This document shows, in pieces, positions 757-17,305 of a DNA stretch of 64,000 nucleotides. Position 1 is the first letter of the stretch. Each line of letters opens with the position of its first letter. The position numbers and the translations under genes are program-made. A model generated the notes under the pieces. The model did not search any database. It saw only the letters and a list, made by a program, of their open reading frames with translations, and was not told the origin of the DNA. Source of the stretch: an uncultured Oscillospiraceae bacterium (GTDB lineage Bacteria; Bacillota; Clostridia; Christensenellales; Aristaeellaceae); assembly GCA_964459985.1 (NCBI GenBank), contig CAYWOS010000007.1, positions 17,920-81,919 on the forward strand. The letters are read 5' to 3'.

Positions 757-1791
757 TCAGTCGAAGATGGTCAACGAAGCACGGGTGCCGTCGTAATCGC
801 TGTCCGTCACGACCATGTAACCGGTGTGGCTGTAGGGCTTGACGCACGCCTTGCCCTCGTCGGTCTTGATGATGTTGAGGAACGCCTGCTGGATGGCGGC
901 CTTGAAATCGTCGTCGATATAGTCCGCGCAGCCCACCGAAATGGTGTCGTTCATGATCATATCGGTCACGCCGATGACCTTGAGGCAATCGAACACCGTC
1001 TTGCCTTCCTTGGCAAGCTCGGGATAGGTCGCTTCAAAGATCGTCGTCGCCCAGTCGTTTTGCCGCGTATCGGCAAAGCCGGCGTAGATATCGAGCTGGC
1101 CGGTCACGACCGACTCGCAGTTGCTGTTGTAGCTGCCGCCGAAGGTGGCGTGCGAGAGGCTCTCCACCGTCTTCTTGGCTTCGCCCACGCCTTCGCCGAA
1201 GTTCTTGTTCAGCCAGATGCTGGGATAGGTGTAGCTCGCGCCGGAAGTAACGGGACCAAGACCCCAGTTGGCGTCGTTCACGTCGTCCCAAGTCAGTTCG
1301 CCCTTGCGCGCCTTCTCCAACAGCGCGGCGCCCTTTTCGGTCAGGGCGTTGACATAGATCAGCGAACGGTAGCCGGACGCCACGTCATCCGATTTGCCGA
1401 CCACGACGTTCCAGTCGTCAAAGTTAGCGGAATCGACGCTCAACGCGGCGCGCGTCGAGGCGAGCGCGATCTTCACGCCGTCATCATGATACTGCACATA
1501 GCCAGTTGCGGTCAGGAAGCCGACGTCGATGGTGCCGGAAATCATCGCTTCGCCCACGACGGCGTAGCTGGTGCCGACGGAGATTTCAACATTCTTAACG
1601 GTATAGCCGCTCTTGGCCATCTCGTCGATCAGCATTTGCTTGAGCGGTTCGGAAGCCGTCATCATTTCCTCAACGCTGGCGCTGGGGACGAAGGCGACGG
1701 TCAGATTCTCGATCACCTTGTCCTCCGCGAACGCGGCGGTCGTGCCGAGAGCGAGAAGAAGCGCGAGAACCAGAGCAAGGGCTTTTCTCAT
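757..1791 (-). CDS. phnD: phosphonate/phosphite ABC transporter substrate-binding protein (PhnD-like)
   Basis: 344-aa ORF with signal peptide MRKALALVLALLLALGTTAAFA. PhnD-like segments TVAFVPS and GTIDVGFL. Followed by the PhnC-like ATPase. Confidence 0.7.
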   Translation of the reverse strand: MRKALALVLALLLALGTTAAFAEDKVIENLTVAFVPSASVEEMMTASEPLKQMLIDEMAKSGYTVKNVEISVGTSYAVVGEAMISGTIDVGFLTATGYVQYHDDGVKIALASTRAALSVDSANFDDWNVVVGKSDDVASGYRSLIYVNALTEKGAALLEKARKGELTWDDVNDANWGLGPVTSGASYTYPSIWLNKNFGEGVGEAKKTVESLSHATFGGSYNSNCESVVTGQLDIYAGFADTRQNDWATTIFEATYPELAKEGKTVFDCLKVIGVTDMIMNDTISVGCADYIDDDFKAAIQQAFLNIIKTDEGKACVKPYSHTGYMVVTDSDYDGTRASLTIFD

Positions 1792-1834: not shown

Positions 1835-1863
1835 AGTATACCGCATTTTTCATGCTTTGTCCA
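1835..1863 (-). promoter_or_regulatory. candidate sigma-A promoter for phnD (TGGACA-17-TATACT)
   Basis: Minus-strand reading: -35 TGGACA (1863-1858), 17-nt spacer, -10 TATACT (1840-1835). About 45 nt upstream of the phnD ATG. Confidence 0.35.
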
Positions 1864-1941: not shown

Positions 1942-4881
1942 TCAGTCGGGCAGCAGTTCCCCGCCCCACCCGATCAGATCGTCCACGGAATAGCGCGGAT
2001 ACACGGCAAGATCGCCGTGTTCGCCCAGCAGCACAACCTCGTCCGTCAAGGGCAGATAGCAGCGCATATCGGGGATCACCGCGCGAAGGCGATAGGTTTC
2101 GGCGTCGACGTACAGTCCGGAATGCCCGTCTATTCCGATGAACATATACCCGCCGTCGGCGGTCACGCACATGGACGGCGCGTCGAGAAGCGACATGTCG
2201 GGCACGGAATAGCTCGTGATCACGCTGCCGTCCGCAGCGCTGACAAACAGAAATCTCCCTTCGCTCAATGTCAGCAGCAGCGCGCCGTCGCCCGGACAGA
2301 AACTGATCATATACGCAGCGCCCTTGGCAAGATCCAGATCGCTTTCCCAGCGCATCTTGCCGCTCTCGATATCGTACAGGCGCAAAACGCCCGCCTCGTC
2401 AAGCGAGGCGACCAGCGGGAGCGTGTTCCCAAGACAGAAGGGCGTCTGCATAAACGCGGTATTTCGAAATCCGCTCCTGACAAACCGCCACTTGCCCGTG
2501 ATCGTGTTGAGCAGCGCGAAGTCCGTCAAATCGGGCGAGTCCCCGCGCGTCATCCGAAGCATGGCGTACCCGTTCCCGCCGACGAAATATTCCCAGAAAA
2601 AGCTGATCGCCTCGTCAGGCAGCGCATACGTCTTTTCCGCCGCGCCGTTTATCCATACGCGCAGCGCGTTTTGATCCGTATTGGCCTGAACCTTGAGCAG
2701 CGCCCCGTTCGCGCCCAGACGGGCGAAACAGTTGCCGTACGTATCAACGTCGCCCTCCGCGCGCGGCAGGATCACGCTCGCCTCGCCGTCTTTCGGATAG
2801 AGCGTATTGCCGATCACGAAATCCATGTTATCATAGATATACGCGCAGAAAGTCAGCGCCGTACGCCCGATTGCGCGCTCCAGAACGATTTCCATGGTTT
2901 TCGTGTTCAGAACAATCGCCTGTTCGTCACGCGCGCACAGCAGATACTCGCCCGATGGCGACAGGCTGAACAGTTCGAAATCGCCGAGACCCGCCAGCGC
3001 GGCGGGCGTGACGCCGTGACCGTCGCCGACGTCGCGCAGGACGACGGCGCGCGATGAATCGCCGTCGGGCACGGCGGCGACAGCGCAGCCCTCCGCGTAT
3101 GTCCCGGCGGCGCTATACAGTTTTATATTAAGCTCGGCGACGACCGCGCCGTCCATGCCGACGACCGCGCCGTTGTCCGTCACGAACCGGGCCTCGCCGC
3201 GCGCTTCGTCCGTCCAGAACCCGGCGATGACATTGCCCGGAAGCGTTTGATCCGAAAGCGTTTCGCCGCTTTGCGCGTCCAGCGTGAGCGCGCGCGCGCC
3301 GACGGCGAAAGCGATTTGCTCAACGCCGTGCAGAAGCGTGACGCTTTGATCGCCCGAATACGGAGGCAGTTCCATCAGCCATTCCGTCGCGCCGGTTTTC
3401 ATGGAATAGCGCATCGCGCGCGCCTGCGCGCCGTCCATCACGGCGTACAGATCGCCCGCGTCCGTGATCGTCAGCCGGCCGTACCCGTCCGCCCGGCCTC
3501 CGGCGTACAGCGCCGCGCCCGCGCCCGATATGTCGATGGCCTTCGCATCGGCGTATCCCGCCGTCAAATCGAGCGCGAACAAATCGGTCATCTTCTCGTT
3601 CGAGCCAACCAGCACGGTCTTATCGGGAGAAAACGCGCCCGTTCCCATGGAAACGGTTTTGTCAAACCCGACGCGCCCGAGCGTCGCGCCGTCCGACAGC
3701 GACAGGAAGCACACTTCCTTCCGGCTCGCGTACGCCAGCACGGTTCCGTCGTCCGAAAGCACAGGCCAGCCGTTCATCTGCCACGCGTCGTGCGTCCATA
3801 GGATCTCGCCCGTCTCGGCGGACAGCATCCACAGGCCGTATCCGTCGGTAAACAGCACGGCGTTCATGTCGTCGAGGGCAAACAGCCTGTTGGCAGCGTA
3901 ATAATCAATCTCGCGCTCCCAGAGCAAACGCGCGCTCACGGCGTCAAAACACCTGATGGAGCCATACACATTCGTGGTCACAAGGCGCGTGCCCGACCCC
4001 GCGAACGTCAGGCTCATGATGTACAGGGACTGCGACACGTTCTGCGCCGGCTCGAACGCGACCGGCTGATAGGCGTACAGCGCGCGCGCCAGCGCGTACT
4101 CGGCGTCGGCGTCGTACGGACGCTCGCCCTTTGTTTTCGGCAGCGCGGCGATCGCGCTCCTGATCGCGCCGACGCGGTCGCCTTCCCCGAGCAGACGCAG
4201 CGATTCCGTCGTCAGCACGCGCGTTTCGCTGCGCTGCGCGGCGAGGAGCATGCGCGTGATATCGGCGTTCTTCAAAGCGAGCATCACGATGAACGCCGCC
4301 GCGACCGCGAACGCGGCCGCCGCAAGCGAGCCGAACACGCGGCGCTTGTACCTGCGTTCGCGCTGCGCGAGCGCGTCGTACGGGCAATCAAGGATCGCGG
4401 CGATCAGGCGCAGCGACTCGCCCTTGAGCAGGCGCAGCGAACCCCGCGCGGTCGCCGCGCGGATGTCCGCCGCCAACGGCTCGATGGGCATTTCGTCGCC
4501 CTCGCGCATGGCGAGGAGCGGCGCGGGGAAGGATTCCTCGGGCGTGCCGGACGCCAGCACCGCCAGCACGCGCTGATGTCCCTTCTTACTGACAAAATAC
4601 TCGATCTCGCGGCACACCCACAGAGATTTGGGCGTTTGCGGCGTGCAGACAACAATCAGAAATTCGGACTGATCAAGCGCGTGATAGATATCGCCTGACA
4701 GATCGCTCGAAAGCGGCAGCTCCGTCCTGTCCCGGAATACGTACCCCGGCTTCTTTTCGCCGTTTTTCCGCAGCGCGCGCGGCACGCGAAAATGCTCGAT
4801 GCGCGACTGAAGGCGTTCGGCGACCGATATGCTCAACGGCTCGTGACGATAGCTGATAAACGCGATGTACGTTCGATCCAT
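1942..4881 (-). CDS. membrane-anchored TIR-domain protein: N-terminal TIR, one TM helix, ~775-aa C-terminal beta-propeller-like (PQQ/BamB/WD40-like) domain
   Basis: The track ORF 1942..5409 is trimmed to the ATG at 4881 (aa 177 of the ORF), which has an AAGGGGA RBS. The upstream part overlaps the divergent gene 5044..7041. TIR hallmarks: IAFISYRHE, LIVVCTP, SLWVCREIEYF. RERRYKRR is followed by the hydrophobic helix VFGSLAAAAFAVAAAFIVMLAL. The remainder has recurring blade-like motifs (SARLLWERE, AETGEILWTHD, KTGATEWLME, ESGKMRWESD). Confidence 0.8.
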   Translation of the reverse strand: MDRTYIAFISYRHEPLSISVAERLQSRIEHFRVPRALRKNGEKKPGYVFRDRTELPLSSDLSGDIYHALDQSEFLIVVCTPQTPKSLWVCREIEYFVSKKGHQRVLAVLASGTPEESFPAPLLAMREGDEMPIEPLAADIRAATARGSLRLLKGESLRLIAAILDCPYDALAQRERRYKRRVFGSLAAAAFAVAAAFIVMLALKNADITRMLLAAQRSETRVLTTESLRLLGEGDRVGAIRSAIAALPKTKGERPYDADAEYALARALYAYQPVAFEPAQNVSQSLYIMSLTFAGSGTRLVTTNVYGSIRCFDAVSARLLWEREIDYYAANRLFALDDMNAVLFTDGYGLWMLSAETGEILWTHDAWQMNGWPVLSDDGTVLAYASRKEVCFLSLSDGATLGRVGFDKTVSMGTGAFSPDKTVLVGSNEKMTDLFALDLTAGYADAKAIDISGAGAALYAGGRADGYGRLTITDAGDLYAVMDGAQARAMRYSMKTGATEWLMELPPYSGDQSVTLLHGVEQIAFAVGARALTLDAQSGETLSDQTLPGNVIAGFWTDEARGEARFVTDNGAVVGMDGAVVAELNIKLYSAAGTYAEGCAVAAVPDGDSSRAVVLRDVGDGHGVTPAALAGLGDFELFSLSPSGEYLLCARDEQAIVLNTKTMEIVLERAIGRTALTFCAYIYDNMDFVIGNTLYPKDGEASVILPRAEGDVDTYGNCFARLGANGALLKVQANTDQNALRVWINGAAEKTYALPDEAISFFWEYFVGGNGYAMLRMTRGDSPDLTDFALLNTITGKWRFVRSGFRNTAFMQTPFCLGNTLPLVASLDEAGVLRLYDIESGKMRWESDLDLAKGAAYMISFCPGDGALLLTLSEGRFLFVSAADGSVITSYSVPDMSLLDAPSMCVTADGGYMFIGIDGHSGLYVDAETYRLRAVIPDMRCYLPLTDEVVLLGEHGDLAVYPRYSVDDLIGWGGELLPD

Positions 4882-4912
4882 GCGGACATCCCCTTCTTTT
4901 GTATCTGCGCGT

Positions 4913-4941
4913 ATTATACCGTTCCGGCCATGAATGCGCAA
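4913..4941 (-). promoter_or_regulatory. candidate sigma-A promoter of the TIR gene (TTGCGC-17-TATAAT)
   Basis: Minus-strand -35 TTGCGC (4941-4936), 17-nt spacer, -10 TATAAT (4918-4913). About 30 nt upstream of the ATG at 4881. Confidence 0.45.
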
Positions 4942-5043: not shown

Positions 5044-7041
5044 ATGATCTATTGCGTTGACGGGACGGCGCCGCGGACGGGCTGCGGAAGTCCCGAAGCG
5101 CCTTTCAGAACCATCGGCGAGGCGGCGCGGGCGGCGCTGCCGGGCGACGAAATCGTGATCGCGCCGGGGATCTACCGCGAATCGGTCGATCCGCCGCGCG
5201 GCGGCACGCCGGAAAAGCGCATCGTTTACCGCGCGAAAACGCCGGGGCAGGCCGTCCTGTCGGGGGCGGAAATCCTGAACGGATGGACGCGCGCGGGGGG
5301 AGACGTCTGGAAGGCCGTGATTCGCGGCGCTTTCACGCCGGACGACAATCCCTATACCGATTGCATTGACGGCGACTGGTTCTACAAAGACGCGGTGCGC
5401 CCGCTCCACAGGGGACAGGTGTTTGCGGACGACCGGCCGCTGATCGAGGCGGACGCCGGGGAGATTTCCGCGCCGACCGACGATATGCGGCTTTCATGCC
5501 CCGAGGGCTGCTGGCGCGCCGAGCAGACGGGCGAGGAAACGGCGTTTTACGTCAATCTTTACGGGCGCGACCCGCGCGCGGCCGTCATGGAATACACGGC
5601 GCGGCGGACGGTTTTCCATCCCGAAAAGACGCATATCGATTACATCACGCTGTCGGGGCTGGTGCTGTGCAAATCGGCCTGCCAGTGGGCGCCGCCCACC
5701 GCCCGTCAGGAGGGGCTGACCGGCCCCAACTGGGCGAAGGGCTGGGTGATCGAGGACTGCGAGGTCTACGGCGCGCGGTGCGTGGGGATCACAGTGGGCA
5801 AGCACGCGGAACCCGATTTTGACAACGAATGGACGAAAAAGCGGCGCAGGCACGGCGCGCAGACGCAGCGCGACACCGTCCTCCGGGCGCTGAACAACGG
5901 CTGGAGCAAAGAAACGATCGGCTGGCACGTCATCAGGCGCTGCCACATCCACGACTGCGGGCAGGCGGGCATCGCCGGGCACATGGGCGGCGCGTTTTCC
6001 GTCATCGAGGACAACCGCATTCATCATATCAATATGCCGCAGGAGCTGCAGGGCGCCGAGATCGGCGGCATCAAGCTGCACGCCGCCATCGACACCGTCC
6101 TTCGCAATAACCGAATCCATCACTGCACGCGCGGCATCTGGCTCGACTGGCAGGCGCAGGGCACGCGGGTGACGGGCAACATTCTCCACCACAACGAACC
6201 GCCCCGGGATCTGCCGATCAAAACGCAGCTCTGTCTGGGCGAGGATCTGTTCGTCGAGGTTTCGCACGGCCCCACGCTGATCGATCACAACCTGCTTTTG
6301 TCGCCCTGCGCGGGGCGCGTCAGCACGCAGGGCATCGCCTTTGCCCACAACCTGATCGCCGGCTCGCTGACCTTCGTGGGCGCGGGCACGAACAACGCCG
6401 GCCTCGACCATCCCGAATCGGCGCGTTATACCCCTTATCACGAACCGCACGACACAAAAATCGCCGGCTTTATGACCATACTGCACGGCGACGCGCGGTT
6501 TTACAACAACATCTTCGTTCAGCAGCCCGAGGACGCGCGCCTGTCGGCGTATATGGCGGGAAGCGGCAAGGCGGGCATGAACGGGATGCATTTGCGCTGC
6601 GGCACGGCGCCCTACGACGGCTATCCGACGCCCGAAGCGTACTTCGCCCGGTTCACGGAGGAAAACGTGCGGAGCAACCGCGCCATGTATTACGACAGGC
6701 TGCCTGTGTACGCCGGGGGCAACGTCTATTTCAACGGCGCGCGCCCCTGCGGCGCGGACGCGGACGCGGCGGTTGCGCGGGAAGCGGTCGGTTTCCGCAT
6801 GGAAAGCCGCGGCGGGGCATGGTATCTGATCACCGACGTTTTTTCGTCGCTGCCGCCCCGCAGCGCGCCCCTGATCGATACGGACAGGCTGGGAAAGGCG
6901 TTCGAGAGCGATCAGGCGTTTGACCGGCCCGACGGCGGCTTCCTGACGCTCGACCGCGACATGCTCGGCGTCCGGCGCGGGGAAACGTGCCTGTGCGGAC
7001 CCTTCGAGACGCCGCCGAAGGGCGATATCGCGCTGGATTGA
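5044..7041 (+). CDS. cytoplasmic right-handed parallel beta-helix glycosidase, GH120-like (XylC-type beta-xylosidase family), paralogue 1
   Basis: 665 aa, no signal peptide. Motifs: PFRTIGEAA..GDEIVIAPGIYRE, WAPPTA, NGWSKETIGWHVIR, GIKLHAAID, WLDWQAQGTRV, FVEVSHGP, AGFMTILHGDARFYNNIF. These match my recollection of Thermoanaerobacterium XylC (GH120). Roughly 45-50% identical by eye to 29337..31331. Confidence 0.6.
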   Translation: MIYCVDGTAPRTGCGSPEAPFRTIGEAARAALPGDEIVIAPGIYRESVDPPRGGTPEKRIVYRAKTPGQAVLSGAEILNGWTRAGGDVWKAVIRGAFTPDDNPYTDCIDGDWFYKDAVRPLHRGQVFADDRPLIEADAGEISAPTDDMRLSCPEGCWRAEQTGEETAFYVNLYGRDPRAAVMEYTARRTVFHPEKTHIDYITLSGLVLCKSACQWAPPTARQEGLTGPNWAKGWVIEDCEVYGARCVGITVGKHAEPDFDNEWTKKRRRHGAQTQRDTVLRALNNGWSKETIGWHVIRRCHIHDCGQAGIAGHMGGAFSVIEDNRIHHINMPQELQGAEIGGIKLHAAIDTVLRNNRIHHCTRGIWLDWQAQGTRVTGNILHHNEPPRDLPIKTQLCLGEDLFVEVSHGPTLIDHNLLLSPCAGRVSTQGIAFAHNLIAGSLTFVGAGTNNAGLDHPESARYTPYHEPHDTKIAGFMTILHGDARFYNNIFVQQPEDARLSAYMAGSGKAGMNGMHLRCGTAPYDGYPTPEAYFARFTEENVRSNRAMYYDRLPVYAGGNVYFNGARPCGADADAAVAREAVGFRMESRGGAWYLITDVFSSLPPRSAPLIDTDRLGKAFESDQAFDRPDGGFLTLDRDMLGVRRGETCLCGPFETPPKGDIALD

Positions 7042-7725
7042 TCAGCGCTTTTGCATGATCGCGGCGATCTGGGCGAAGTTCACCTGATTGAGCACGGCGA
7101 TGACATCCTTCATCCGCTTCATCTCAAATTTCTTGAGGATGCTGTTGACCTGACTTTTGATGGTCACTTCCGACACAAAGCGCGTCTTGGCGACCTCGCG
7201 GTACGAATCGCCGTTGTATATGCAGCAGAGCACTTCGAATTCGCTGTTGGTCATCTTGGTCAGAATATTGAGGATATACAAAAGGCTCGCCTTTTCGTCC
7301 TGAATGCGCTGAAACTCGGTGACGATCTTGGTGGCGACGTCGCTGCGGAGCTGGAGCTGGTTCTGGCTGACCTTTTCAATGGACGAGACGATCTTGGAGA
7401 TCGAATCGGTCTTGACGATGTAGTCCATCGCGCCGCTCGAATACGCCTGAAAGAGCATTTCGTCGTCCGAATGGATGGTCAGGATGATGATTTTGCAGCC
7501 GGGCAGCGTTTTATGAATGATGCGCGTGGCGTCGATGCCCGCCGTTTCGGTCTCCATCTGGATATCCATCAGGATGATGTCGGGGCGCTCGCGCGTGGCG
7601 AGCATCAGGCAGTCCCTGCCGCTTTCCGCCTCGCCCACGACCGTGAAATTCGGCTCGCGGTTCAGAATGCCGCGAAAATAGGCGCGAATCTCGGCGTTAT
7701 CGTCCGCCAACAAGATTCTGATCAT
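7042..7725 (-). CDS. response regulator, REC + LuxR/NarL-type HTH
   Basis: 227 aa. REC: MIRILLADDN, ILMDIQME. C-terminal HTH: SEFEVLCCIYNGDSYREVAKTRFVSEVTIKSQVNSILKKF. Lies 3 nt downstream of the kinase gene. Confidence 0.85.
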   Translation of the reverse strand: MIRILLADDNAEIRAYFRGILNREPNFTVVGEAESGRDCLMLATRERPDIILMDIQMETETAGIDATRIIHKTLPGCKIIILTIHSDDEMLFQAYSSGAMDYIVKTDSISKIVSSIEKVSQNQLQLRSDVATKIVTEFQRIQDEKASLLYILNILTKMTNSEFEVLCCIYNGDSYREVAKTRFVSEVTIKSQVNSILKKFEMKRMKDVIAVLNQVNFAQIAAIMQKR

Positions 7726-7728
7726 GGT

Positions 7729-9270
7729 TTACCTCCTTCTGCGCGACCGGGGAAGCAGGATCTCGACCTGCGTGAAGACATTCTGCTGGCTGCGGATGTG
7801 CATTTGCCCGTAATGCGCCCTGATCACGTTGAACACGTAGGACAGCCCGATGCCCCAGCTGTTTTTCTTGTTTTTCGTCGATACGTACGGCTGCTCGACC
7901 TTGTGCAGGATCTTGGCGGGAATGCCGCAGCCGTTGTCCCATACCGAAAAATACACCCAGTTGCGGCTGGTGTAGATCGTCAGGCGGATTTTAGGATGCT
8001 CCGGCGCGGCGGCGGCGAGCGCGTCCAGCGAGTTGATCAGTACGTTGCCCACGGCGTGGGTCATATGATAGATATCGAAAAAGAGCGGCAGCGTATCGCC
8101 GGGATAATCCCGTTCGATCTCGACGGATTCGGGCACGCGCAGATTGGCGAGCGCGGTTTCGACCGCGCCGATGAAATCGTTGCGGACGGTGCTGACGTTC
8201 ATGTCGTGCGCGTCGTTGAGCGTGCGCGCCAGATCGTCCATGTTCTGGTTGCACAGATCGAGGATTTTTTCCATCTTGCGGGCGCGCTCCAGCTCGTCCG
8301 CCGTTTCGAGCGCGTCCTGCGTCAGGATGCGGATGGTGAACAGCAGGTTCTTTTCGCTGTGCATCACGTTGCGCACGTTGGCGTACAGGGCGTTCAGATT
8401 CCTGCGGATTCCGCGCGATTTGAAAAAGCTGAGGATATAATCGTCGTGCAGGTGCATCAGCGTGACGAAGATCGCCACGAGCAGGATAAACGTGATGATG
8501 GGCAAAAGCGAGGTATAGAACACCGGCATCTGCAGGGGCAGCGTGAAGCGCCAGAAGCCGTACTGCATAACGTCCTGACAGGACACGCGGAACACGCCGG
8601 TGAAAAACAGCATGAAAAAGCTGATGTTCAATATAAGCAGCGTGCCCGCCAGCCGCAGCAGAAAGCCCGAAAGAAAGGTGATCCTGCCGCGCCGGTAATT
8701 GATCAGAAGGAACAGGACGGGCCACAGGAGATAGATCAGCACGCAGAATGTCATCGCCGAATCCGCCAGACGGATCAGCGAGACGAACTGCTGCATCCGC
8801 GCGGCATCCGTCAGCGTGTGATAATAATGGAAAAAGCGGTAGGCGGTCTGCGGATGATAAAAGACGAAAAACAAAAGCGGCAGGCCGATCAGGGGCACGT
8901 ACTGCAGTGCGAGCCGCCGCTTTTTGTCCGCCGCCTCGTCCAGCCTGACGCTGCTGCTGAAGGAGCGCACGAAACACACGATGCCCCCGAAATAGCCCAC
9001 GACGCCGGCGTTCCTGATGATCATCAGCGTGGACAAAGGGATTTTCATCATGGAATAGCACATCGCGTACAGCCGCGTCTCCAGCGAACGGATCAGGAAA
9101 TTGGCGGGCACCAGATAGTTGCTCACCCGCGCCACCTCAACCGTCAGCGAAAACATCGACAGCGTCATCGACACCACCAGCACGGCGTACAGGTAAAAGT
9201 ACTTATTGCGCCAGCCGTAGACCAGCAGCAGCGCGGTAAACAGCAAAAGGAGCAGGATGGTCATCGACAT
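7729..9270 (-). CDS. polytopic membrane sensor histidine kinase (no obvious extracytoplasmic domain)
   Basis: Track ORF trimmed to the ATG at 9270 (MSMTILLLL, GGAAGGAGG RBS). About 330 aa of multiple hydrophobic segments. H-box-like MHSEKNLLFT. HATPase N-box NVLINSLDA, G1 DNGCGI, G2 GIGLSY. Confidence 0.8.
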   Translation of the reverse strand: MSMTILLLLLFTALLLVYGWRNKYFYLYAVLVVSMTLSMFSLTVEVARVSNYLVPANFLIRSLETRLYAMCYSMMKIPLSTLMIIRNAGVVGYFGGIVCFVRSFSSSVRLDEAADKKRRLALQYVPLIGLPLLFFVFYHPQTAYRFFHYYHTLTDAARMQQFVSLIRLADSAMTFCVLIYLLWPVLFLLINYRRGRITFLSGFLLRLAGTLLILNISFFMLFFTGVFRVSCQDVMQYGFWRFTLPLQMPVFYTSLLPIITFILLVAIFVTLMHLHDDYILSFFKSRGIRRNLNALYANVRNVMHSEKNLLFTIRILTQDALETADELERARKMEKILDLCNQNMDDLARTLNDAHDMNVSTVRNDFIGAVETALANLRVPESVEIERDYPGDTLPLFFDIYHMTHAVGNVLINSLDALAAAAPEHPKIRLTIYTSRNWVYFSVWDNGCGIPAKILHKVEQPYVSTKNKKNSWGIGLSYVFNVIRAHYGQMHIRSQQNVFTQVEILLPRSRRRR

Positions 9271-9336
9271 GTCCCGCGCCTCCTTCCGTGCTCCGCATGA
9301 TCCCGTATACGGCGATATACATAACAAACCATTGTT

Positions 9337-9364
9337 ATTATACCAGAAAGGCATTCGTTTGCAA
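9337..9364 (-). promoter_or_regulatory. candidate promoter of the kinase/regulator operon (TTGCAA-16-TGgTATAAT, extended -10)
   Basis: Minus-strand -35 TTGCAA (9364-9359), 16-nt spacer, TGG + TATAAT (9345-9337). Confidence 0.45.
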
Positions 9365-9533
9365 GTTGTAAAAAACGTGCGCCTTTTTACGAAAAAAGCC
9401 CGAAAACCGCGCCGAAAAGCGGCGTCAGGCGCAAAAAAAACCAGTCTTGCGCAATGGACAAAAGCGTGAAATACTATGAGGCGTAGGGACGTTCCCATTT
9501 CGTCAGGTTCAACAGCATAAGGAGGAAAACGCC

Positions 9534-10889
9534 ATGAGAAAAACCCTGTCCTGGATTCTTGTCCTGTCCATGCTCCTGTCTCTGTGCGCGTTTGCCGGCG
9601 CTCTGGCGGACGACGTGACGACGATCACCGTCTGGTCCGACAACGCCCATGAGAAAGAGCTGCGCAACAAGCAGGTGGAAACCTTCAACGAAACGATCGG
9701 CAAGGAAAACGGCATCTTCGTGGAATACACGGTGTACGGCGACAACTATTCCGATTCCATCAAGATCGCCGCCCGTACCGACGAGGCGCCCGACATGTTC
9801 CGCGCCGACACCAAATGGATGCAGGATTTCGTGGACGCCGGCTATGTGACGCCGCTCACGAAGTTCCCGGGCGGCGACGAGCTGATCGCCAAGTTCGACG
9901 GCCTGCTCGCCAAGCAGTACCACATCTTCAACGGCGAAGTCTATACCCTGCCCTACAACCTGACCACCTATAAATTCGTGGTCAACGCCGATCTGTTCAA
10001 GGCGGCGGGGCTGGATATCCCCTACGACGGCTGGACGTGGGCCGACGTGCGCGCGTGCGCCAAGAAAATCACCGAAGTCGGCGCCGGCAAAGCGTACGGT
10101 TTCGGCCTGTCGCTCAAGTCCGCATGGACGCTTTCGAGCTATATCACCATGCCCGCCGGCTGCAACATCGGGCACTACGGCTACGACTGGAACGCCGGCA
10201 AGTTCAACTTCGCCGCGCTGACGCCCATCATCGAAGAGGTGTACGGCATGGCGCAGGTGGACGGCAGCGTGTTCCCGGGCTTTGAGGGACTGGACGGCGA
10301 CGGCGTTCGCGCGCAGTTCTCCGAAGGCCGCATCGGCATCATGGGCGCCGCCAGCTTCGACGCCGCCGTGTACAACGAGCAGTTCCCCGCCAAGTGCGAA
10401 TGGGCGGTCGTGCCCGAACCCGCCTTCACCGAGGAAGGCCATCCCTACAAGGAATTCGTGCAGCCCACCCAGCTGCTGGTCATGGGCAAGAAGGCGCTTG
10501 AGCATCCCGACAAGGCCATGATCGTGTACGACTACTTCTACAGCGACGAGTGCGCCGCCGCCATGTACGAGCAGGGCCTGTACGTGCCCATCCGCCAGCA
10601 GGCGATCGATCTGGCGACCAAGCAGCCCGACGCCAAGGGCTTTGCCGAATTCGCCGACATCGAGCAGAAGTTCGTCATGGGCGCCATGCCCGACACCCTG
10701 ATCTCCATCGAAGGCTCGGCGTACCGCGACGTGATCATCAGCCTGCTCTCCGGTCAGGCGGGCAGCGATGTGAAGGGTATGCTCGAGGATTGCGACGCGC
10801 GTTACAACAAGGCGCTCGAAGCCCTGACGCCCGAACAGCTGAACCTGTTCCGGCTGCCCGAAGGCACGAGCACCGAGCGCGCCAAGTAA
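9534..10889 (+). CDS. CUT1-family sugar ABC transporter substrate-binding protein
   Basis: 451 aa. Signal peptide with Cys (LLSLCAFAGALA). AAGGAGGA RBS. Followed by two MalFG-type permeases. Confidence 0.85.
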   Translation: MRKTLSWILVLSMLLSLCAFAGALADDVTTITVWSDNAHEKELRNKQVETFNETIGKENGIFVEYTVYGDNYSDSIKIAARTDEAPDMFRADTKWMQDFVDAGYVTPLTKFPGGDELIAKFDGLLAKQYHIFNGEVYTLPYNLTTYKFVVNADLFKAAGLDIPYDGWTWADVRACAKKITEVGAGKAYGFGLSLKSAWTLSSYITMPAGCNIGHYGYDWNAGKFNFAALTPIIEEVYGMAQVDGSVFPGFEGLDGDGVRAQFSEGRIGIMGAASFDAAVYNEQFPAKCEWAVVPEPAFTEEGHPYKEFVQPTQLLVMGKKALEHPDKAMIVYDYFYSDECAAAMYEQGLYVPIRQQAIDLATKQPDAKGFAEFADIEQKFVMGAMPDTLISIEGSAYRDVIISLLSGQAGSDVKGMLEDCDARYNKALEALTPEQLNLFRLPEGTSTERAK

Positions 10890-10907
10890 GGAACCTTTTT
10901 CCGGACG

Positions 10908-10937
10908 ACGGCAGGCGCGGGCAACTGCGCCTGCCGT
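10908..10937 (+). other. intercistronic stem-loop after the binding-protein gene
   Basis: ACGGCAGGCGC (10908-10918) pairs with GCGCCTGCCGT (10927-10937) around an 8-nt loop, followed by TTT. Confidence 0.5.
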
Positions 10938-10991
10938 TTCCGGGATACGAAGGACGCGCGCCGTCCGTTGATCAAGGCAAGGAGGAGCGGT

Positions 10992-11915
10992 ATGTTACAA
11001 TCGCGCGCGAAAGGCGTAAGGCGACTTTCCTTCAGGCAGGATTCCGTGCAGGCCGTGATGATGCTGGCGCCCATGCTCGTGGGGTTCGCGCTGTTCACGT
11101 ACGGGCCGATCCTCTATATTCTCAGGTTTTGCCTGTACAAGGCAAACGATTTCAAGGCGACATACAACGGCGTTGACAACTTTGTCCGTTTGTTTACCCG
11201 CGACGGCGCGTTCTGGGACGCCATGCTCAACACGCTGCTGCTCTCAGTGGGCAAATTGATCATCGAGCTTCCGCTCGCCATGGTGCTCGCCCTGCTGCTC
11301 AACCGCGGGCTGAAAGGCACGGGCTTTTTCCGCACGACGCTGTTCCTGCCCGCCATTACCTCGACCGCCATCGTCGGGTTGGTGTTTTCCCTGATGTTCG
11401 CCAGCTTCGACGGCATCGTCAACAACATCCTGCAAAACGTCGGACTGATCGCGCGCCCCATCAACTGGATGGGCAACAAATGGACGGCGCTGGAAATGCT
11501 GGGGATCGCCTCGATCTGGAATTACTTCCCCATCAACATGATCTATTTCCTGATGGCGCTTCAGTCCATCCCCCGCGAAATCTACGAATGCGCCGAGCTG
11601 GACGGCGTCACGCCCTGGAAACGGTTTTGGAAAATCACGCTGCCCATGATCGCCCCCATCGCGCAGGTGGTCGTCCTGATGGCGATCGTCGGCTCGCTCA
11701 AGGTATCCGATCTGGTGCTCGCCTCCACCAACGGCGCGCCGGGCGGCAAAACGGAAGTCATCATGACGTACGTGTTCAAATACTTCTTCGGCTATTCCGG
11801 ACGCGCGGTCGAGATCGGCTACGCCTCCGCCATGTCGGTGGTCACGGGAATTTTTCTCGCCCTGATATCGCTGATCTATATGCGCTCGACCAACAAAATG
11901 AATCAAATCTATTGA
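10992..11915 (+). CDS. sugar ABC transporter permease (MalF/UgpA-like)
   Basis: Track ORF 10968 (TTG) trimmed to the ATG at 10992, which follows an AAGGAGGA RBS. Multi-pass protein with EAA-like loop ECAELDGVTPWKRFWKITLPM. Confidence 0.85.
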   Translation: MLQSRAKGVRRLSFRQDSVQAVMMLAPMLVGFALFTYGPILYILRFCLYKANDFKATYNGVDNFVRLFTRDGAFWDAMLNTLLLSVGKLIIELPLAMVLALLLNRGLKGTGFFRTTLFLPAITSTAIVGLVFSLMFASFDGIVNNILQNVGLIARPINWMGNKWTALEMLGIASIWNYFPINMIYFLMALQSIPREIYECAELDGVTPWKRFWKITLPMIAPIAQVVVLMAIVGSLKVSDLVLASTNGAPGGKTEVIMTYVFKYFFGYSGRAVEIGYASAMSVVTGIFLALISLIYMRSTNKMNQIY

Positions 11916-11930
11916 GAGGAGGGCGGCGCA

Positions 11931-12782
11931 ATGACGATAACGACGCGGAAAAGGCTGACGGCGTGCCTGACCTATCTGGCGCTGGGCGTGATCTTCGTGT
12001 TTGTGATCTTTCCGGTCTTTTACACCTTCATGGGCTCGTTCAAGAGCAATCAGGAGCTGCTCACCTCGGGCAGCACGATCATCCCCGAGCGCTTCGTGCT
12101 GGACAACTACCGGCAGGCGTGGCGGCTCGCCAATTTTGCGCAGTACACATGGAACAGCGTGTACATGTCCTTCTTCATCGTGATCGGCACCGTGATCACG
12201 AGCACGGTGGCGGGCTACTGCTTCGAGCGGGGGCGCTTTAAGGGCAAGAATCTGCTGTTCACCGTCATCGTGTCCTCGATGTTCGTATCGCTGGGCAGCC
12301 TCACGCTGTACCCCACCGTCATGATCGCCAAGTTTTTCGGCATCAACAAATCGCTCTGGGGCGTCATCCTCATCCGCGTGCTGGGCATGAACGTGACCAA
12401 CCTGTTCATCACGCGCACCTACATCCGCACGCTCTCCCCCGAGATCGACGAGGCGGCGAAGATCGACGGCTGCTCGTTTTTCAGCACGTTCGTGCACATC
12501 ATCTTTCCCCTGCTCAAGCCCCTGATCGCCACCATCGCGATCCTCGAGTTCCGCCACAGCTGGAACGATTATATGATGCCGATGGTCTTCACCATGGCCA
12601 ATCCCGACCGCATGCCGCTCGTGGTGGGCGTCGTCAGCCTGAAAAGCTCGGGCGAGGCGGCGTCCTCGTGGAACCTGATGCTGGCGGGCACGGCGATCTC
12701 GATGATCCCCATGATCTTCGTGTACATGGTGTTCAACCGCTACTTCATCGCGGGCATGACGGCGGGCGCCGTAAAAGGATGA
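11931..12782 (+). CDS. sugar ABC transporter permease (MalG/UgpE-like)
   Basis: 283 aa. EAA-like loop DEAAKIDGCSFFSTFVHIIFPLLKP. Confidence 0.85.
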   Translation: MTITTRKRLTACLTYLALGVIFVFVIFPVFYTFMGSFKSNQELLTSGSTIIPERFVLDNYRQAWRLANFAQYTWNSVYMSFFIVIGTVITSTVAGYCFERGRFKGKNLLFTVIVSSMFVSLGSLTLYPTVMIAKFFGINKSLWGVILIRVLGMNVTNLFITRTYIRTLSPEIDEAAKIDGCSFFSTFVHIIFPLLKPLIATIAILEFRHSWNDYMMPMVFTMANPDRMPLVVGVVSLKSSGEAASSWNLMLAGTAISMIPMIFVYMVFNRYFIAGMTAGAVKG

Positions 12783-14815
12783 GCGGGGCGGGCGGTTTTG
12801 CCGGATCGGGCGCGGCGCGGTTCGGCGACGAGCGGCTGCGCGCGGCCTGCCGGGAGCGCGGCGTCGCCTGCGACTACATCCTGATCAGGGACGGGACGCT
12901 GCCGGAGGCGAGCTATGCCGCCGACGCGCGGGGCGATACGCACATCCTTCGCGCCGCCGACGAGGAGGGCGCGCTGGCGGCGCTGCTCGATCTGAAGGAC
13001 AGCGTGGAGGCGCGCGGCGCGCCCCTGCTCGATAAAGGGCTGCACGCGCCCGCGATCCGGCGCAGGGGGATCAAATTGAACGTGCCGCTCGACGTCCGCA
13101 CGCCGAGCTACTCCGACTGCGGCGACAGCGCGCAGGAGAACATCGCGGCGATGTGGGACGCGGCGTTCTGGCGCGGGCTGCTGGACAGGATGGCGCTCAA
13201 CCGCTACAACACGCTGACGCTGTGGAACCTGTGCCCCTTCCCGTCGATGGCGCGCGTTCCGGAGTACCCGGACGCCGCGCTTGACGACGTGATGGTTTCC
13301 TCGGCGATGGCGGGCGGCACGTCGCGCGCGCTGGGCTTTTATACGCCCGCGATGCATGACAACCTGATCTGCGTCAGGCGCATGACCATCGCGGAAAAAA
13401 CGGCGTTCTGGAACGGCGTGCTGGCGTACGCGCGCGATCGCTGCATCCGGGTGTATCTGTTCACGTGGAATCTGTACCTGTACGGGCTGGAGGACACGGG
13501 TTACGGGCTGACCGAGCGCGCGGACGACGGGGAAACGCGGCGGTACATCCGCGCCTCGACGGCGGCGCTGATGCGCGCGCTGCCTTTGCTCGCGGGCATC
13601 GGCGTCACGGCGGGCGAAAACCTGTGCGCCGAATGGACGGACAATCAGGACCTGCGCTGGGTGCGGGAAACCTACGGGCGCGGCGTCGAGGACGCGCTGG
13701 CGGACGATCCCGACCGCCGCTTTACCCTGATCCTGCGCACGCACATGACCACGCTCCCGCAGTTCCGGGAAGCCTTTTCCGACTACCGGGGCGAGGTCGA
13801 TATCAGCGTCAAGTACGCCATGGCGCACATGACGGCGACCGAGCGGCCGCGCTTCTGCGATGATCTGATCGCCGCCAAGCCGCCGGGCACGGGGATGTGG
13901 ATGACGCTCAGACAGGACGATTTCTACACCTTCCCGTGGGCGGACGACGAGTTTCTCGAAGCGCTCCTCCGGCAAATGCCCAAGGCCGACCTGCGCGGGT
14001 TCTACTACGGCGCGGACGGCGTGATCTGGGGCGTCGACCGGCAAAGCCGCGTCGAGGCGCTCAACGGACGGTACTTCATCGACAAGCATTTCTTCGCGTT
14101 CGCGCTGATCGGCCGGCTGGGCTGGCGCGGGACGGTATCCGACGCGGAAAAAATCGCCTGCCTCCGCGCCTTCCTGCCGGGGCTTCCGCCCGAAAAGCTG
14201 CTCGTCAGGCTTCGCCTCGCATCCCGCGCCGCGCGGCTGATCGGGCTGGCGCACTGGCGCAATTACGATTTGCAGTGGTATCCCGAGGCGTGCTGCTATC
14301 TGGACGAGCCCGACCGCACGACGGCGTTCGACGATCTGAACGAGTTCGTTCGCTGCGGCGCGTGCCCGGGCGCGGGCGTGGCGTCGGTGGCGGAAACGGC
14401 AGCGGGCGCGGGCGCGCAGCCCCGGAACGCGCTGGATGTCGCGGACGACATCCTCCGGTATGCCGATCTGGCGGACGCCGTGCCCCTGCCCGGGGGATCG
14501 GGCGACGCCGAGCGCGAAATGTGCGCCGATCTCGCGCGGATCACGCATCTGGCGCGATACTACGCGTGGAAACTGCGCGCGGCGGTCGCGCTGGCGCGCG
14601 GGCGGGCGCGCGGGGACGAGCGGGCGCTGCGCGACGCGGCGGGGCATATGCGCCGGGCGGAAGCGCATTGGCGGCGCTATTCCGCCGAAACGGCGGCATG
14701 GTACAAGCCCCGGCGGTTGAGCCGGCTGCGCGGCGTGGTCAGCCCGGACATGTGGGACGGGCGCGTGCAAAGGGATATCGATATCTGTGAAGACAGGAGG
14801 AACCATTCATGCTGA
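12779..14815 (+). CDS. hypothetical cytoplasmic protein, putative glycoside hydrolase (family not recognised)
   Basis: Track ORF 12668 trimmed to the ATG at 12779, which overlaps the permease stop (ATGA). No signal peptide. Segments RGIKLNVPLD, LNRYNTLTLWNLCPFPSM and IRVYLFTWNLYLYG suggest a TIM-barrel hydrolase, but I cannot place the family. Confidence 0.45.
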   Translation: MSGAGGFAGSGAARFGDERLRAACRERGVACDYILIRDGTLPEASYAADARGDTHILRAADEEGALAALLDLKDSVEARGAPLLDKGLHAPAIRRRGIKLNVPLDVRTPSYSDCGDSAQENIAAMWDAAFWRGLLDRMALNRYNTLTLWNLCPFPSMARVPEYPDAALDDVMVSSAMAGGTSRALGFYTPAMHDNLICVRRMTIAEKTAFWNGVLAYARDRCIRVYLFTWNLYLYGLEDTGYGLTERADDGETRRYIRASTAALMRALPLLAGIGVTAGENLCAEWTDNQDLRWVRETYGRGVEDALADDPDRRFTLILRTHMTTLPQFREAFSDYRGEVDISVKYAMAHMTATERPRFCDDLIAAKPPGTGMWMTLRQDDFYTFPWADDEFLEALLRQMPKADLRGFYYGADGVIWGVDRQSRVEALNGRYFIDKHFFAFALIGRLGWRGTVSDAEKIACLRAFLPGLPPEKLLVRLRLASRAARLIGLAHWRNYDLQWYPEACCYLDEPDRTTAFDDLNEFVRCGACPGAGVASVAETAAGAGAQPRNALDVADDILRYADLADAVPLPGGSGDAEREMCADLARITHLARYYAWKLRAAVALARGRARGDERALRDAAGHMRRAEAHWRRYSAETAAWYKPRRLSRLRGVVSPDMWDGRVQRDIDICEDRRNHSC

Positions 14816-15243
14816 CGCTCACAAGGGAAGCAAACGGAAGAATGATCGTGGTGTCCCTCGGACGGGGCGAAATGCTGCTGGAGGGCATCGAGCGGGCGAT
14901 CAGGGAAAACGGCGTCCGCGACGCCGTCGCGGTATCCTGCATCGGCACGCTGTCGTCGATGACGTGGCACCGCGTAATGACGCTCGACATGAAGCCCGAG
15001 GTCGAATACCCCGTCGTGCACGGGCCGCTTGAATTGTGCGCCGTGCAGGGGCTGGTGGTGAACGGCGCGCCGCACTTCCATCTGGTCTGCTCGGACAAAA
15101 ACGGCGTGTACGCGGGGCATCTGGAACCGGGCTGCGAGGTGCTCTATCTGGCGGAAATCGCGCTGATGGAACTGACGGGCAAGCCGCTGCGCAAGGCGAT
15201 CGACGAAAACGGGCTCAGCCAGTTGACGCCCGACGACGAATAA
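14809..15243 (+). CDS. PPC (DUF296) domain protein
   Basis: 144 aa. Fits the DUF296 pattern: GRMIVVSLGRGEMLLEGIERAIRENGV...GAPHFHLVCSDKNGVYAGHLEPGCEV. Overlaps the upstream stop by 7 nt. Confidence 0.6.
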   Translation: MLTLTREANGRMIVVSLGRGEMLLEGIERAIRENGVRDAVAVSCIGTLSSMTWHRVMTLDMKPEVEYPVVHGPLELCAVQGLVVNGAPHFHLVCSDKNGVYAGHLEPGCEVLYLAEIALMELTGKPLRKAIDENGLSQLTPDDE

Positions 15244-15255
15244 GGAGGAATCCAC

Positions 15256-15963
15256 ATGATGAACCGGGATGAACTGATCAGGGAAATCCGCAAGTATCGC
15301 TGCTCCGACCTGTCGGACGGCATGGACGCCCTCGGGCTTGTCGACAAAGGCACCATGAGCGAAAAAATGCGTCCTCTGCGTCCGGGCATGGAGTTCAAGG
15401 GCTACGCCTTCACGGTCAAGCTGCTGCGCAAGCAGGACGGCGTGAAAAGCTGCGCGACGGTGGAGGAATGGCGCGAGGAGCTGGGCAGGGGCTGCGGCGA
15501 CATCTATCGCTTCGTGGATGAAATCACGCCGGAAAGCGCCCGGGACATGGTCGTCGTGATCGATATGGACGGCGTTCGCGGCGGCGTGTGGGGCAGCGAG
15601 ATCGCCATGAACACCATGATTCGCGGCATCAGCGGCGCCGTCGTGGACGGCGGCTGCCGCGACAGCTATGAAACGAATCTGGAGGGCGCCAACGTGTTCT
15701 GCACAAGCCGCACCTTCACGCATTCCTACGGCCGCGTCACTTTCGGCGGCACGAACATCCCCGTCAACTGCGCGGGCGTTCAGGTCAAGCCGGGCGACAT
15801 CATCTGCGCCGACGACGACGGCGTGCTGGTAATTCCCTTCGAGCGCGCCGAGGAAGTGATGAAGTTCGCGCGGATGCAGCTGGAGGACGATATCAAAACG
15901 CGCGGCGACCACTATAAAAAGCTCGGTTTTGAACAAGACGACACGCTCAAGCGACTGGGGTGA
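15256..15963 (+). CDS. RraA-family protein (RraA / HMG-CHA aldolase / oxaloacetate decarboxylase fold)
   Basis: 235 aa. Family core GGVWGSEIAMNTMIRGISGAVVDGGCRD and GDIICADDDGVLVIP. Confidence 0.75.
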   Translation: MMNRDELIREIRKYRCSDLSDGMDALGLVDKGTMSEKMRPLRPGMEFKGYAFTVKLLRKQDGVKSCATVEEWREELGRGCGDIYRFVDEITPESARDMVVVIDMDGVRGGVWGSEIAMNTMIRGISGAVVDGGCRDSYETNLEGANVFCTSRTFTHSYGRVTFGGTNIPVNCAGVQVKPGDIICADDDGVLVIPFERAEEVMKFARMQLEDDIKTRGDHYKKLGFEQDDTLKRLG

Positions 15964-15967
15964 CGAT

Positions 15968-17197: not shown

Positions 17198-17237
17198 AGC
17201 GCGCCGGGCGTCGACAGACGCGTGCGCGCGCCCGCGC

Positions 17238-17268: not shown

Positions 17269-17305
17269 GTACCGAAGAATGATGATGTTGAGCAGGCGCG
17301 GCGGC

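Follow-up and report, generated by a model that had tools for sequence, protein, structure and literature searches.

Locus and gene

The 64,000-nucleotide stretch of DNA analyzed here, hereafter the window, derives from an uncultured Oscillospiraceae bacterium of the Clostridia (assembly GCA_964459985.1, contig CAYWOS010000007.1, forward-strand positions 17,920 to 81,919). On its reverse strand, at 1942-4881, lies a gene for a large protein in which an N-terminal TIR (Toll/interleukin-1 receptor) domain is followed by a single predicted transmembrane (TM) helix, a helical stalk and cap, and a tandem pair of beta-propellers. The features of this gene, on which the argument below is built, are as follows (aa, amino acid residues; AF2, AlphaFold2):

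1942-4881 (-): whole coding sequence, 979 aa plus stop codon, TIR-TM-tandem-propeller protein
4913-4941 (-): putative promoter, read in the sequence; TTGCGC at 4936-4941, 17-nt spacer, TATAAT at 4913-4918
4889-4896 (-): Shine-Dalgarno sequence GAAGGGGA, 7-nt spacer to ATG 4881
4387-4881 (-): TIR domain, predicted cytoplasmic, aa 1-165 (Pfam, profile search, AF2, Foldseek)
4606-4608 (-): GAG codon of the putative catalytic E92, the Glu of W88-x-x-x-E92 in helix aC, invariant in alignments
4330-4386 (-): juxtamembrane segment, aa 166-184, with the invariant C-P-Y-D-x-L (C166-L171) and the basic cluster RERRYKRR
4273-4329 (-): single predicted TM helix SLAAAAFAVAAAFIVMLAL, aa 185-203, Kyte-Doolittle (KD) 19-mer mean 2.48
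4186-4272 (-): helical stalk, predicted extracytoplasmic, aa 204-232, continuous with the TM helix, minimal length class 74
4072-4185 (-): helical cap, aa 233-270, with the motif ALP...RPY...AE.AL..AL.Y ahead of the first blade (AF2 and alignment)
3007-4071 (-), boundary approximate: beta-propeller 1, aa ~271-625; Pfam PQQ_2 51.7 bits, above the cut-off (also AF2 and Foldseek)
1987-3006 (-), boundary approximate: beta-propeller 2, aa ~626-965; Beta-prop_EMC1_N 32.8 bits, just under the cut-off of 34 (also AF2 and Foldseek)
1942-1986 (-): C-terminal helix and stop codon, aa 966-979 (AF2 helix 966-976)

The first-pass annotation of the window credited the protein with 980 residues; the actual product has 979 plus the stop codon, and the proposed start at ATG 4881 stands, being supported by the Shine-Dalgarno sequence and by the equivalent start methionine of the homologues (M-x-R-x-Y-I-A-F). 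A longer open reading frame (ORF) with a GTG start, extending up to 5409, would run into the divergent GH120-like gene at 5044-7041(+), which is a further reason to accept ATG 4881. The promoter read earlier as TTGCGC-17-TATAAT is indeed present, with a perfect -10 element and a -35 element that agrees with the consensus at 3/6 positions only, which is why a consensus promoter scan did not list it. The same scan found a promoter-like site of its own, 1835-1863(-), in front of the downstream gene for a phosphonate substrate-binding protein (SBP), so that monocistronic expression of the TIR gene, claimed earlier, is plausible from the sequence, although no convincing intrinsic terminator was found 3' of its stop codon. 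The GC content of the gene (63%) is close to that of the window (62%), and the gene is therefore compositionally native.

The same protein, 100% identical, occurs together with the GH120-like neighbor in three independent metagenome assemblies. In P0001, a metagenome variant with 99% identity, seven residues, GMDGAVV (aa 575-581, window 3139-3159(-)), are missing between two GAVV repeats (GAVV-GMDGAVV); the window gene and P0001 differ here, at strain level, by a 21-nt indel that falls on a short direct repeat in a loop of propeller 1.

The TIR domain

The N-terminal domain is placed in the TIR superfamily by the Pfam model TIR_2 (PF13676; 29.0 bits, cut-off 28), and ThsB_TIR also scores above its threshold (24.8 bits, cut-off 21.2). 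A family profile compiled from 30 N-terminal regions and searched against solved structures matches the TIR domains of 7uxr (2.2e-6), Roq1 (4.4e-6), AtTIR, L6, TcpB, PdTIR and AbTir, as well as the animal TIRs of TLR1, TLR2, TLR6 and TLR10. Both AF2 models, that of the full-length protein and that of aa 1-180 (predicted local distance difference test, pLDDT, 87.0; predicted TM-score, pTM, 0.85), show the canonical order bA-aA-bB-aB-bC-aC-bD-aD-bE-aE, the elements being bA 5-10, aA 15-30, bB 47-50, aB 63-71, bC 72-79, aC 87-100, bD 105-109, aD 114-123, bE 136-139 and aE 145-164. When the TIR-only model is compared with the PDB by Foldseek, the top 50 matches are all TIR domains, among them RUN1, TIR-1/SARM1, RPP1, RPS4, TLR1 and AbTir, and also the MAL, MyD88 and TRIF filaments. 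The TIR-like domain had previously been assigned to aa 1 to ~135; the fold was recognized correctly, and the boundary was set too early, since bE and aE reach aa 165.

The enzymatic TIRs carry a conserved Glu in helix aC, within the pattern WxxxE or WCxxEL, and this residue is found in the window protein: E92, singled out earlier at nt 4606-4608 as the counterpart of the catalytic Glu, is encoded by GAG at precisely this position and aligns with the Glu in the motifs WCLEEL (Roq1), WCLMEL (L6) and WTEYEL (7uxr). In the NAD (nicotinamide adenine dinucleotide)-cleaving TIRs, the Glu at the aligned position is catalytic. Across 44 relatives from several phyla, proteobacterial and actinobacterial members among them, W88 and E92 (WVCRE) never vary; S86 and D51, too, are kept across phyla.

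The segment aa 131-175 (window 4357-4491, -) resembles region 4 of sigma-E (IESLPEDLR...IAAIMDCPVGTVRSR; 18/44 identical, E 0.24; 2h27, 1or7) and gives a weak Pfam match to HTH_28 (E 0.11). A sigma-70 region-4-like helix-turn-helix ahead of the membrane was considered on these grounds and rejected: in both AF2 models the region is made of bE and aE, and the resemblance to sigma-E is probably a matter of chance.

Membrane topology and the stalk

The arrangement described in the first-pass annotation, namely the cluster RERRYKRR followed by one hydrophobic helix, holds (KD 2.48), with the helix extending over nt 4273-4329 rather than ~4273-4338. A hydrophobic 19-mer occurs once, and only once, in each of 32 aligned relatives, at the same position and with KD values of 1.96-2.85, and in 32/32 of them Lys and Arg number 5-7 in the 15 residues before the helix as against 1-5 after it, so that the predicted positive-inside pattern noted earlier for the single protein is a property of the family. 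The helix segment of the relatives comprises 19-22 uncharged residues, in which hydrophobicity is kept and the sequence is not. No N-terminal signal peptide was found in the TIR protein, and a folded domain of 165 residues stands ahead of the hydrophobic helix. In the AF2 model, a single continuous helix, aa 168-232, spans the membrane segment and has the TIR domain and the propellers at its opposite ends. One helix of about 20 residues, positive-inside flanks and the absence of a cleavable signal peptide are, by prediction, the features of a single-pass protein with the N-terminus inside and the C-terminus outside, and this N-in/C-out (type II) orientation is the only consistent predicted topology.

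The spacing between the membrane and the ectodomain follows a regular pattern. Measured in 111 family members from the CPYDxL motif to the cap motif (A/S)LP...RP, it equals 74+7n residues in 108 proteins, and three are off-register. The classes are 74 (54 proteins, including the window protein), 81 (17), 88 (10), 95 (12), 102 (14) and 221 (1). Since the spacing changes by whole heptads, it implies, at the level of sequence, a continuous parallel coiled coil that would run through the membrane locked in register, with the phase between the ectodomain and the cytoplasm kept. By analogy with other coiled-coil transmembrane sensors, this heptad spacing makes the strongest new case for a possible mechanical coupling between both halves of the protein.

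The ectodomain

The C-terminal two propellers, suspected earlier from repeated motifs, are borne out by AF2 (full-length model: pLDDT 87.4, pTM 0.75), which places ~62 strands between aa 275 and 962, that is, ~15 four-stranded blades of the WD40/PQQ-like kind, in line with the Pfam PQQ_2 match. By Foldseek, the ectodomain resembles tandem-WD40 proteins (EML-type microtubule inner proteins, Utp21, Apaf-1, COPI; E 1e-20 to 1e-24) at ~10% identity. It is acidic, with 100 Asp and Glu against 59 Lys and Arg. The cap motif that precedes the first blade recurs in distant WD40 relatives and in kinase-NACHT relatives, and the family C-terminus carries a conserved P.YS.E(D)L motif.

Distribution of the family and selection on its parts

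A word-index search yielded 126 relatives, dozens of which are ~1000-1100 aa long and show the same Pfam pattern; where named at all, they are called merely "TIR domain-containing protein". A scan of one genome per species confirmed at least 572 family loci, and the locus-level analyses described here concern the best 80 of these. The best 80 loci belong to Lachnospiraceae, Butyrivibrio, Roseburia, Oscillospiraceae/Ruminococcaceae, Christensenellaceae and Erysipelotrichaceae and come mostly from rumen and gut, cultured Butyrivibrio strains being among them. Among the matches listed, the genomes closest to the window protein are metagenome-assembled genomes of Ruminococcaceae/Oscillospiraceae and Gemmiger. 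Several genomes hold two or more copies, some of them in tandem. A phage or prophage origin was considered and rejected, as a search of 2.9 million viral contigs (IMG/VR) yielded no relatives.

Conservation falls steeply from the cytoplasmic to the distal end of the protein: all-pairs identity is 56% in the TIR domain, 46% in the juxtamembrane segment plus TM helix, 40% in the stalk and cap, and 19-20% in the propellers. A HMMER scan with the ectodomain alone retrieved 196 proteins (E <= 1e-3) from 1.84 billion representatives, nearly all of the same architecture, the few exceptions being kinase/NACHT variants; an ectodomain-only word-index search recovered just the 99%-identical P0001 and is uninformative beyond indicating extreme ectodomain divergence. 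Between close orthologues, the ratio of nonsynonymous to synonymous substitutions (dN/dS) is 0.03-0.08 for the TIR domain and 0.07-0.21 for the ectodomain. These low values indicate that both parts are functional and, as far as the sequences tell, under purifying selection, the ectodomain being less constrained than the TIR. Diversifying selection on the ectodomain was considered and rejected in view of its whole-domain dN/dS between orthologues.

The tandem paralogues present a different picture. In one pair (L034:3752-7120 and 7123-10470), the cytoplasmic parts are 97% identical (dS 0.15) and the ectodomains only 35% (dS 1.24), a contrast for which, judging from the sequences, a better account than diversifying selection is that recombination or gene conversion recently homogenized a 5' cassette while the differing ectodomains were retained. 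A second pair (L025:7968-10862 and 11172-14024) also combines near-identical cytoplasmic cassettes with very different ectodomains. Such sets of tandem paralogues amount to a receptor repertoire sharing one output.

A DHH/DHHA1 phosphodiesterase next to many relatives

All ORFs around the 80 related loci were clustered in search of partners. A DHH/DHHA1 protein of ~500 aa adjoins the TIR gene at 33/80 of these TIR-anchored loci; the clusters ranking next (15 and 11 loci) seem to be antisense ORFs within the genes for the DHH and TIR proteins, and every further genuine neighbor family, generic ABC (ATP-binding cassette) ATPases for example, is confined to at most 11 of the 80. In the reciprocal scan, which started from the DHH family in metagenomes and covered 80 loci, a gene for a TIR receptor lies within 6 kb of the DHH gene at 44. 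The fraction rises to 20/29 where the flanks reach at least 3.5 kb on both sides, and to 13/14 where, in addition, the DHH protein is at least 53% identical to the query. The usual arrangement is DHH>TIR>, with gaps of 7-100 nt; the order TIR>DHH> and convergent and divergent pairs also occur. This survival of the adjacency through rearrangement argues for a functional linkage. Examples include L019:6484-7995 (with the TIR gene at 7995-11027), L033:6439-7950, L013:11018-12580 and L089-L168.

The DHH protein keeps all catalytic motifs (DHH, GGGH), and its residues ~5-307 match nucleotide phosphodiesterases of the NrnA, Rv2837c and TM1595 type. Its conserved C-terminal domain of ~180 aa matches nothing in Pfam, NCBIfam, PADLOC or PDB sequences, and no PADLOC system matches the protein as a whole. 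The description of the TIR gene as stand-alone, given in the first-pass annotation, thus applies to the window, in whose 64 kb no DHH gene occurs, and fails for the family, about half of whose loci have DHH/DHHA1 next door.

Exchange of cytoplasmic heads

The unit composed of the TM helix, stalk, cap and propellers is not confined to TIR proteins. In Clostridia, together with the basic cluster, it carries protein kinase (Pkinase) plus TIR heads in P0069 and P0225 and Pkinase plus NACHT-like P-loop NTPase heads in P0180 and P0186. In other phyla, distant relatives show a TIR domain, a basic cluster, one hydrophobic helix and the cap motif, followed by classical WD40 or TPR (tetratricopeptide repeat) arrays. 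Judged by sequence, the TM-propeller unit behaves as an exchangeable sensor, and the heads joined to it are of the domain kinds used in immune and conflict signaling. The proteins P0180, P0186, P0069 and P0225 look, from their predicted domains, like membrane-spanning receptors akin to STAND (signal transduction ATPases with numerous domains)/NLR (nucleotide-binding leucine-rich-repeat) proteins.

Genomic neighborhood

The genes surrounding the TIR gene in the window are the following (GH, glycoside hydrolase):

757-1791 (-): phosphonate-binding SBP, flanking the TIR gene on its downstream side
5044-7041 (+): GH120-like beta-helix protein, divergent neighbor of the TIR gene
7042-7725 (-): LuxR-type response regulator
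7729-9498 (-): histidine kinase
9534-10889 (+): sugar SBP
10968-12782 (+): two ABC permeases
15929-17197 (+): GH10 xylanase

The position between phosphonate-uptake and glycosidase genes was thus described correctly before, as was the lack of a partner effector or a defense island in view, the neighbors being transport, two-component and glycosidase genes. The segment 5044-17200 is a plant-polysaccharide utilization neighborhood, consistent with a fiber degrader of gut or rumen. Several long ORFs have no Pfam match (E <= 1e-3), namely 12668-14815(+) / 12740-14806(-), 14677-16203(-) and 17222-18271(+); their coding strand is ambiguous in this window, whose GC content of 62% goes with many ORFs that overlap on opposite strands.

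The neighborhoods of four relatives contain sortases, a SpaA-type pilin, a 2142-aa LRR (leucine-rich repeat)/Big_2 surface protein, a PMT glycosyltransferase and housekeeping genes. The cell-surface machinery lies at L082:10338-14600, L083:5813-6910 and L081:1379-7807 (sortases; SpaA pilin with LPXTG anchor; LRR_5/Big_2); with four neighborhoods inspected, this adjacency may be coincidental.

No sign of a defense island was seen in the window or in these four neighborhoods. PADLOC assigned the TIR protein to no system, and what it recognized was limited to the TIR domain: SAVED_TIR (E 2.4e-5) is confined to aa 7-109, and ThsB is marginal (E 0.0098 and 0.075). The ThsA effector (SIR2/SLOG or Macro-TM) that defines Thoeris does not adjoin the gene in the window, and no such neighbor cluster appears at the 80 related loci; nor does the protein contain the SAVED or STING domain, or the vicinity the cyclase gene, of CBASS and Pycsar.

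A proposed membrane receptor with a TIR output

When considering what such a protein might do, we lean, on balance, towards a type II single-pass membrane receptor in which surface propellers would let a ligand control the assembly of the cytoplasmic TIR domains and their cleavage of NAD+. The computations underlying this reading yielded the domain architecture, the positive-inside signal, the WxxxE motif, the heptad-locked spacing, selection on both halves, modular reuse and, in relatives, the linkage to DHH.

The following sequence of events can be envisaged. The N-terminal TIR domain would stay in the cytoplasm, with one helix crossing the membrane and continuing as an extracytoplasmic coiled-coil stalk, which would carry the helical cap and the two propellers on the surface of the Gram-positive (Clostridia) host. 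The propellers would bind an extracellular or cell-envelope ligand, and binding may alter how the parallel coiled coil packs or clusters and thereby draw the TIR domains into head-to-tail assemblies. Known TIR enzymes need such assemblies to form the active site. Once assembled, the TIR domains would cleave NAD+, resulting either in its depletion or in an ADP-ribose-derived signal; in many relatives, the adjacent cytoplasmic NrnA-like DHH/DHHA1 enzyme probably degrades or responds to the nucleotide product, and the window copy may work without a DHH neighbor or with a DHH protein encoded elsewhere. As to the output, which may serve either defense against phages or competitors or the routine sensing of envelope and environment, the balance leans slightly towards regulated signaling rather than a pure suicide switch, because there is no defense context and no phage association, and because the partner is a phosphodiesterase.

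More tentatively, the family as a whole could be a functional prokaryotic counterpart of the Toll-like receptors (TLRs), with a ligand acting via the register-locked coiled coil on a TIR enzyme, whose NAD-derived messenger would be turned over or read by the linked DHH/DHHA1 protein. We regard this extension as possible and no firmer than that.

Several points weigh against the receptor reading. Topology, oligomerization, NADase activity and the ligand are all things that we infer from sequence and models. The aC Glu is also present in some scaffold-type animal TIRs, so that its conservation is no proof of catalysis. The sequences indicate no whole-domain positive selection on the ectodomain, and a ligand engaged in an arms race is accordingly not indicated. 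Heptad steps could arise partly from tandem duplication of 7-aa repeat units rather than from selection on the register, and the stalk length classes may reflect few independent events; the register is preserved under either origin. Finally, tblastn detected no DHH homologue in the 64-kb window, and no candidate effector adjoins the window gene, which leaves the signaling output without an identified receiver there.

Alternative explanations

The most obvious competing views concern the output of the TIR domain. It might be that the architecture is as described and the TIR serves, without enzymatic activity, as an assembly or scaffold domain that recruits another cytoplasmic protein, as is classically the case with animal TLR and adaptor TIRs. 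The profile matches to TLR1, TLR2, TLR6 and TLR10, the Foldseek matches to TLR1, MAL, MyD88 and the TRIF filaments, and the absence of an adjoining reader of an NAD-derived signal at the window gene would fit. However, the invariant WxxxE, together with S86 and D51 retained across phyla, conforms to what is seen in the enzymatic TIRs of bacteria and plants, the best matches in sequence and structure are NADase TIRs (7uxr, Roq1, RUN1, SARM1/TIR-1, AbTir), the recurrent partner is a nucleotide phosphodiesterase, as befits a nucleotide product, and the neighborhoods of the 80 related loci show no recurrent second gene for a TIR-only adaptor; we therefore consider a scaffold rather improbable. It is unlikely, too, if somewhat less so, that the protein is a dedicated anti-phage sentinel of abortive infection, in which phage adsorption or damage sensed at the propellers would cause the infected cell to deplete its NAD+ and die. 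Abortive infection commonly employs TIR NADases as effectors (PMC11350192), the swapping of TIR, NACHT-like NTPase and kinase heads on one ectodomain is typical of conflict systems, and genomes hold several paralogues with different ectodomains. Yet the neighbors are housekeeping and surface genes (transporters, glycosidases, sortases, pilins) rather than defense islands, PADLOC recognizes the TIR domain and no system, relatives in the 2.9 million viral contigs number zero, the GC content is native (63% against 62%), and orthologous ectodomains are under purifying selection. The defense or abortive-infection role suggested in the first-pass annotation thus finds no support in context, be it from defense islands, phage carriage or a PADLOC system.

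Two further explanations question the location of the TIR domain, and both are poorly supported. If the helix did not span the membrane, the protein would be soluble and act as a TIR-WD40 sensor in the cytoplasm, as other TIR-repeat proteins of bacteria do; bacterial WD40 and TPR arrays are indeed mostly cytoplasmic, and distant relatives carry classical WD40 or TPR arrays behind the equivalent helix. Against this stand the 19-22 uncharged residues with KD means of 2.0-2.9 and the Arg/Lys cluster on the TIR side only, seen in all relatives examined, as well as the conservation of the hydrophobicity of the helix where its sequence is not conserved, which together make a soluble protein very improbable. 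Hardly credible, in our opinion, is a secreted or surface TIR factor of the TcpB/TcpC/TirS kind, a virulence or host-modulating protein acting on the TLR signaling of the host. The carriers are gut and rumen commensals and the family profile matches TcpB and PdTIR, but the TIR domain is N-terminal, lacks a signal peptide and lies on the K/R-rich, that is, cytoplasmic, side of the helix, and a protein of ~1000 aa with a large propeller ectodomain is unlike the small soluble Tcp proteins.

Relation to known systems

The membrane receptor favored here shares parts with several known groups of proteins. With the enzymatic TIRs (AbTir, 7uxr, ThsB, RUN1, L6, Roq1, SARM1/TIR-1), which are the best matches of the window TIR, it has in common the fold and the W-x-x-x-E helix aC. 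Those proteins are soluble or cytoplasmic and sense intracellular cues via NLR, SAVED, STING, ARM or stand-alone domains, whereas in the window protein a coiled coil is predicted to fasten the TIR to the membrane and to connect it with a double propeller on the extracytoplasmic side.

With the animal Toll-like and interleukin-1 (IL-1) receptors, it shares the single-pass layout, a repeat-built ectodomain outside and a TIR domain inside, and, we would suggest, activation by TIR juxtaposition. A TLR is a type I protein with N-terminal LRRs and a C-terminal TIR; the window protein is, by prediction, type II, its TIR is N-terminal, it has no signal peptide, and its ectodomain is a propeller instead of the LRR or immunoglobulin domains of the TLR and IL-1 receptors. 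Unlike these receptors, moreover, it keeps the enzymatic motif in its TIR and has no known adaptor TIRs. The TLR-like topology proposed earlier therefore stands as in/out receptor logic and falls as sequence order, which is inverted, and as to the kind of sensor. The likeness to TLRs is one of convergent architecture with shared receptor logic, not of orthology or homology of the whole receptor.

As to the order of the parts, the receptor Ser/Thr kinases (PknB with PASTA domains, PknD) are comparable, having a catalytic domain at the cytoplasmic N-terminus, a single TM helix and, at the extracytoplasmic C-terminus, a sensor. PknD consists of an N-terminal cytoplasmic kinase, one TM helix and a C-terminal extracellular beta-propeller sensor. 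The window protein has no Pkinase domain, which is found only in the relatives P0069, P0225, P0180 and P0186, where it stands ahead of the TIR or the NACHT-like NTPase. The soluble TIR-WD40, TIR-TPR and STAND (NACHT/NB-ARC)-WD40 conflict proteins, which are cytoplasmic and often have vWA-MoxR or GTPase partners (PMC7159879, PMC8195603), similarly combine an N-terminal head (TIR, kinase or NTPase) with a C-terminal repeat sensor and show paralogous expansion; in the window protein, by contrast, a membrane helix and a heptad-locked stalk intervene between head and sensor, and no description of a TIR-TM-propeller receptor was found in these two papers. As for the partner of the relatives, it shares its catalytic motifs with the stand-alone DHH/DHHA1 phosphodiesterases (NrnA, Rv2837c/CnpB, TM1595, Pde2) and differs from them in the extra C-terminal domain of ~180 aa and in the genomic link to a TIR receptor.

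Neither a TIR-TM-propeller family nor a TIR-DHH pairing was found in Pfam, NCBIfam, PADLOC names or the literature searched, comparative-genomic surveys of bacterial TIR, WD40 and STAND systems included, and the same sources yielded no characterized homologues, the existence of which had been named beforehand as grounds for abandoning the case. The parts, that is, the TIR domain, the membrane helix and the propeller, are known; what is new is their combination into a predicted register-locked transmembrane receptor with a TIR of the enzymatic type.

Implications

To our knowledge, the known bacterial TIR systems (Thoeris, CBASS and Pycsar effectors, SPARTA, TIR-NLRs, SpbK) sense intracellular events, and the layout with the TIR inside and the sensor outside has previously been tied to the animal TLR and IL-1 receptors. 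If the present reading is true, the coupling of a TIR domain to a large sensor outside the cytoplasm would imply that TIR chemistry serves bacteria in outside-in signaling, too. The heptad-locked stalk and the recurrent DHH partner provide testable handles on the mechanism, and the kinase-NACHT versions hint at the existence of membrane-spanning STAND/NLR-like proteins in bacteria. The family is large, and most of it is found in gut and rumen Lachnospiraceae and Oscillospiraceae, so that its biology would bear on the ecology of the microbiome. Should the family indeed be the prokaryotic counterpart of the TLRs, it would represent a new pathway of receptor-coupled nucleotide signaling, abundant in the gut microbiome, whose ligand may be a phage, a competitor, the host or an envelope cue.

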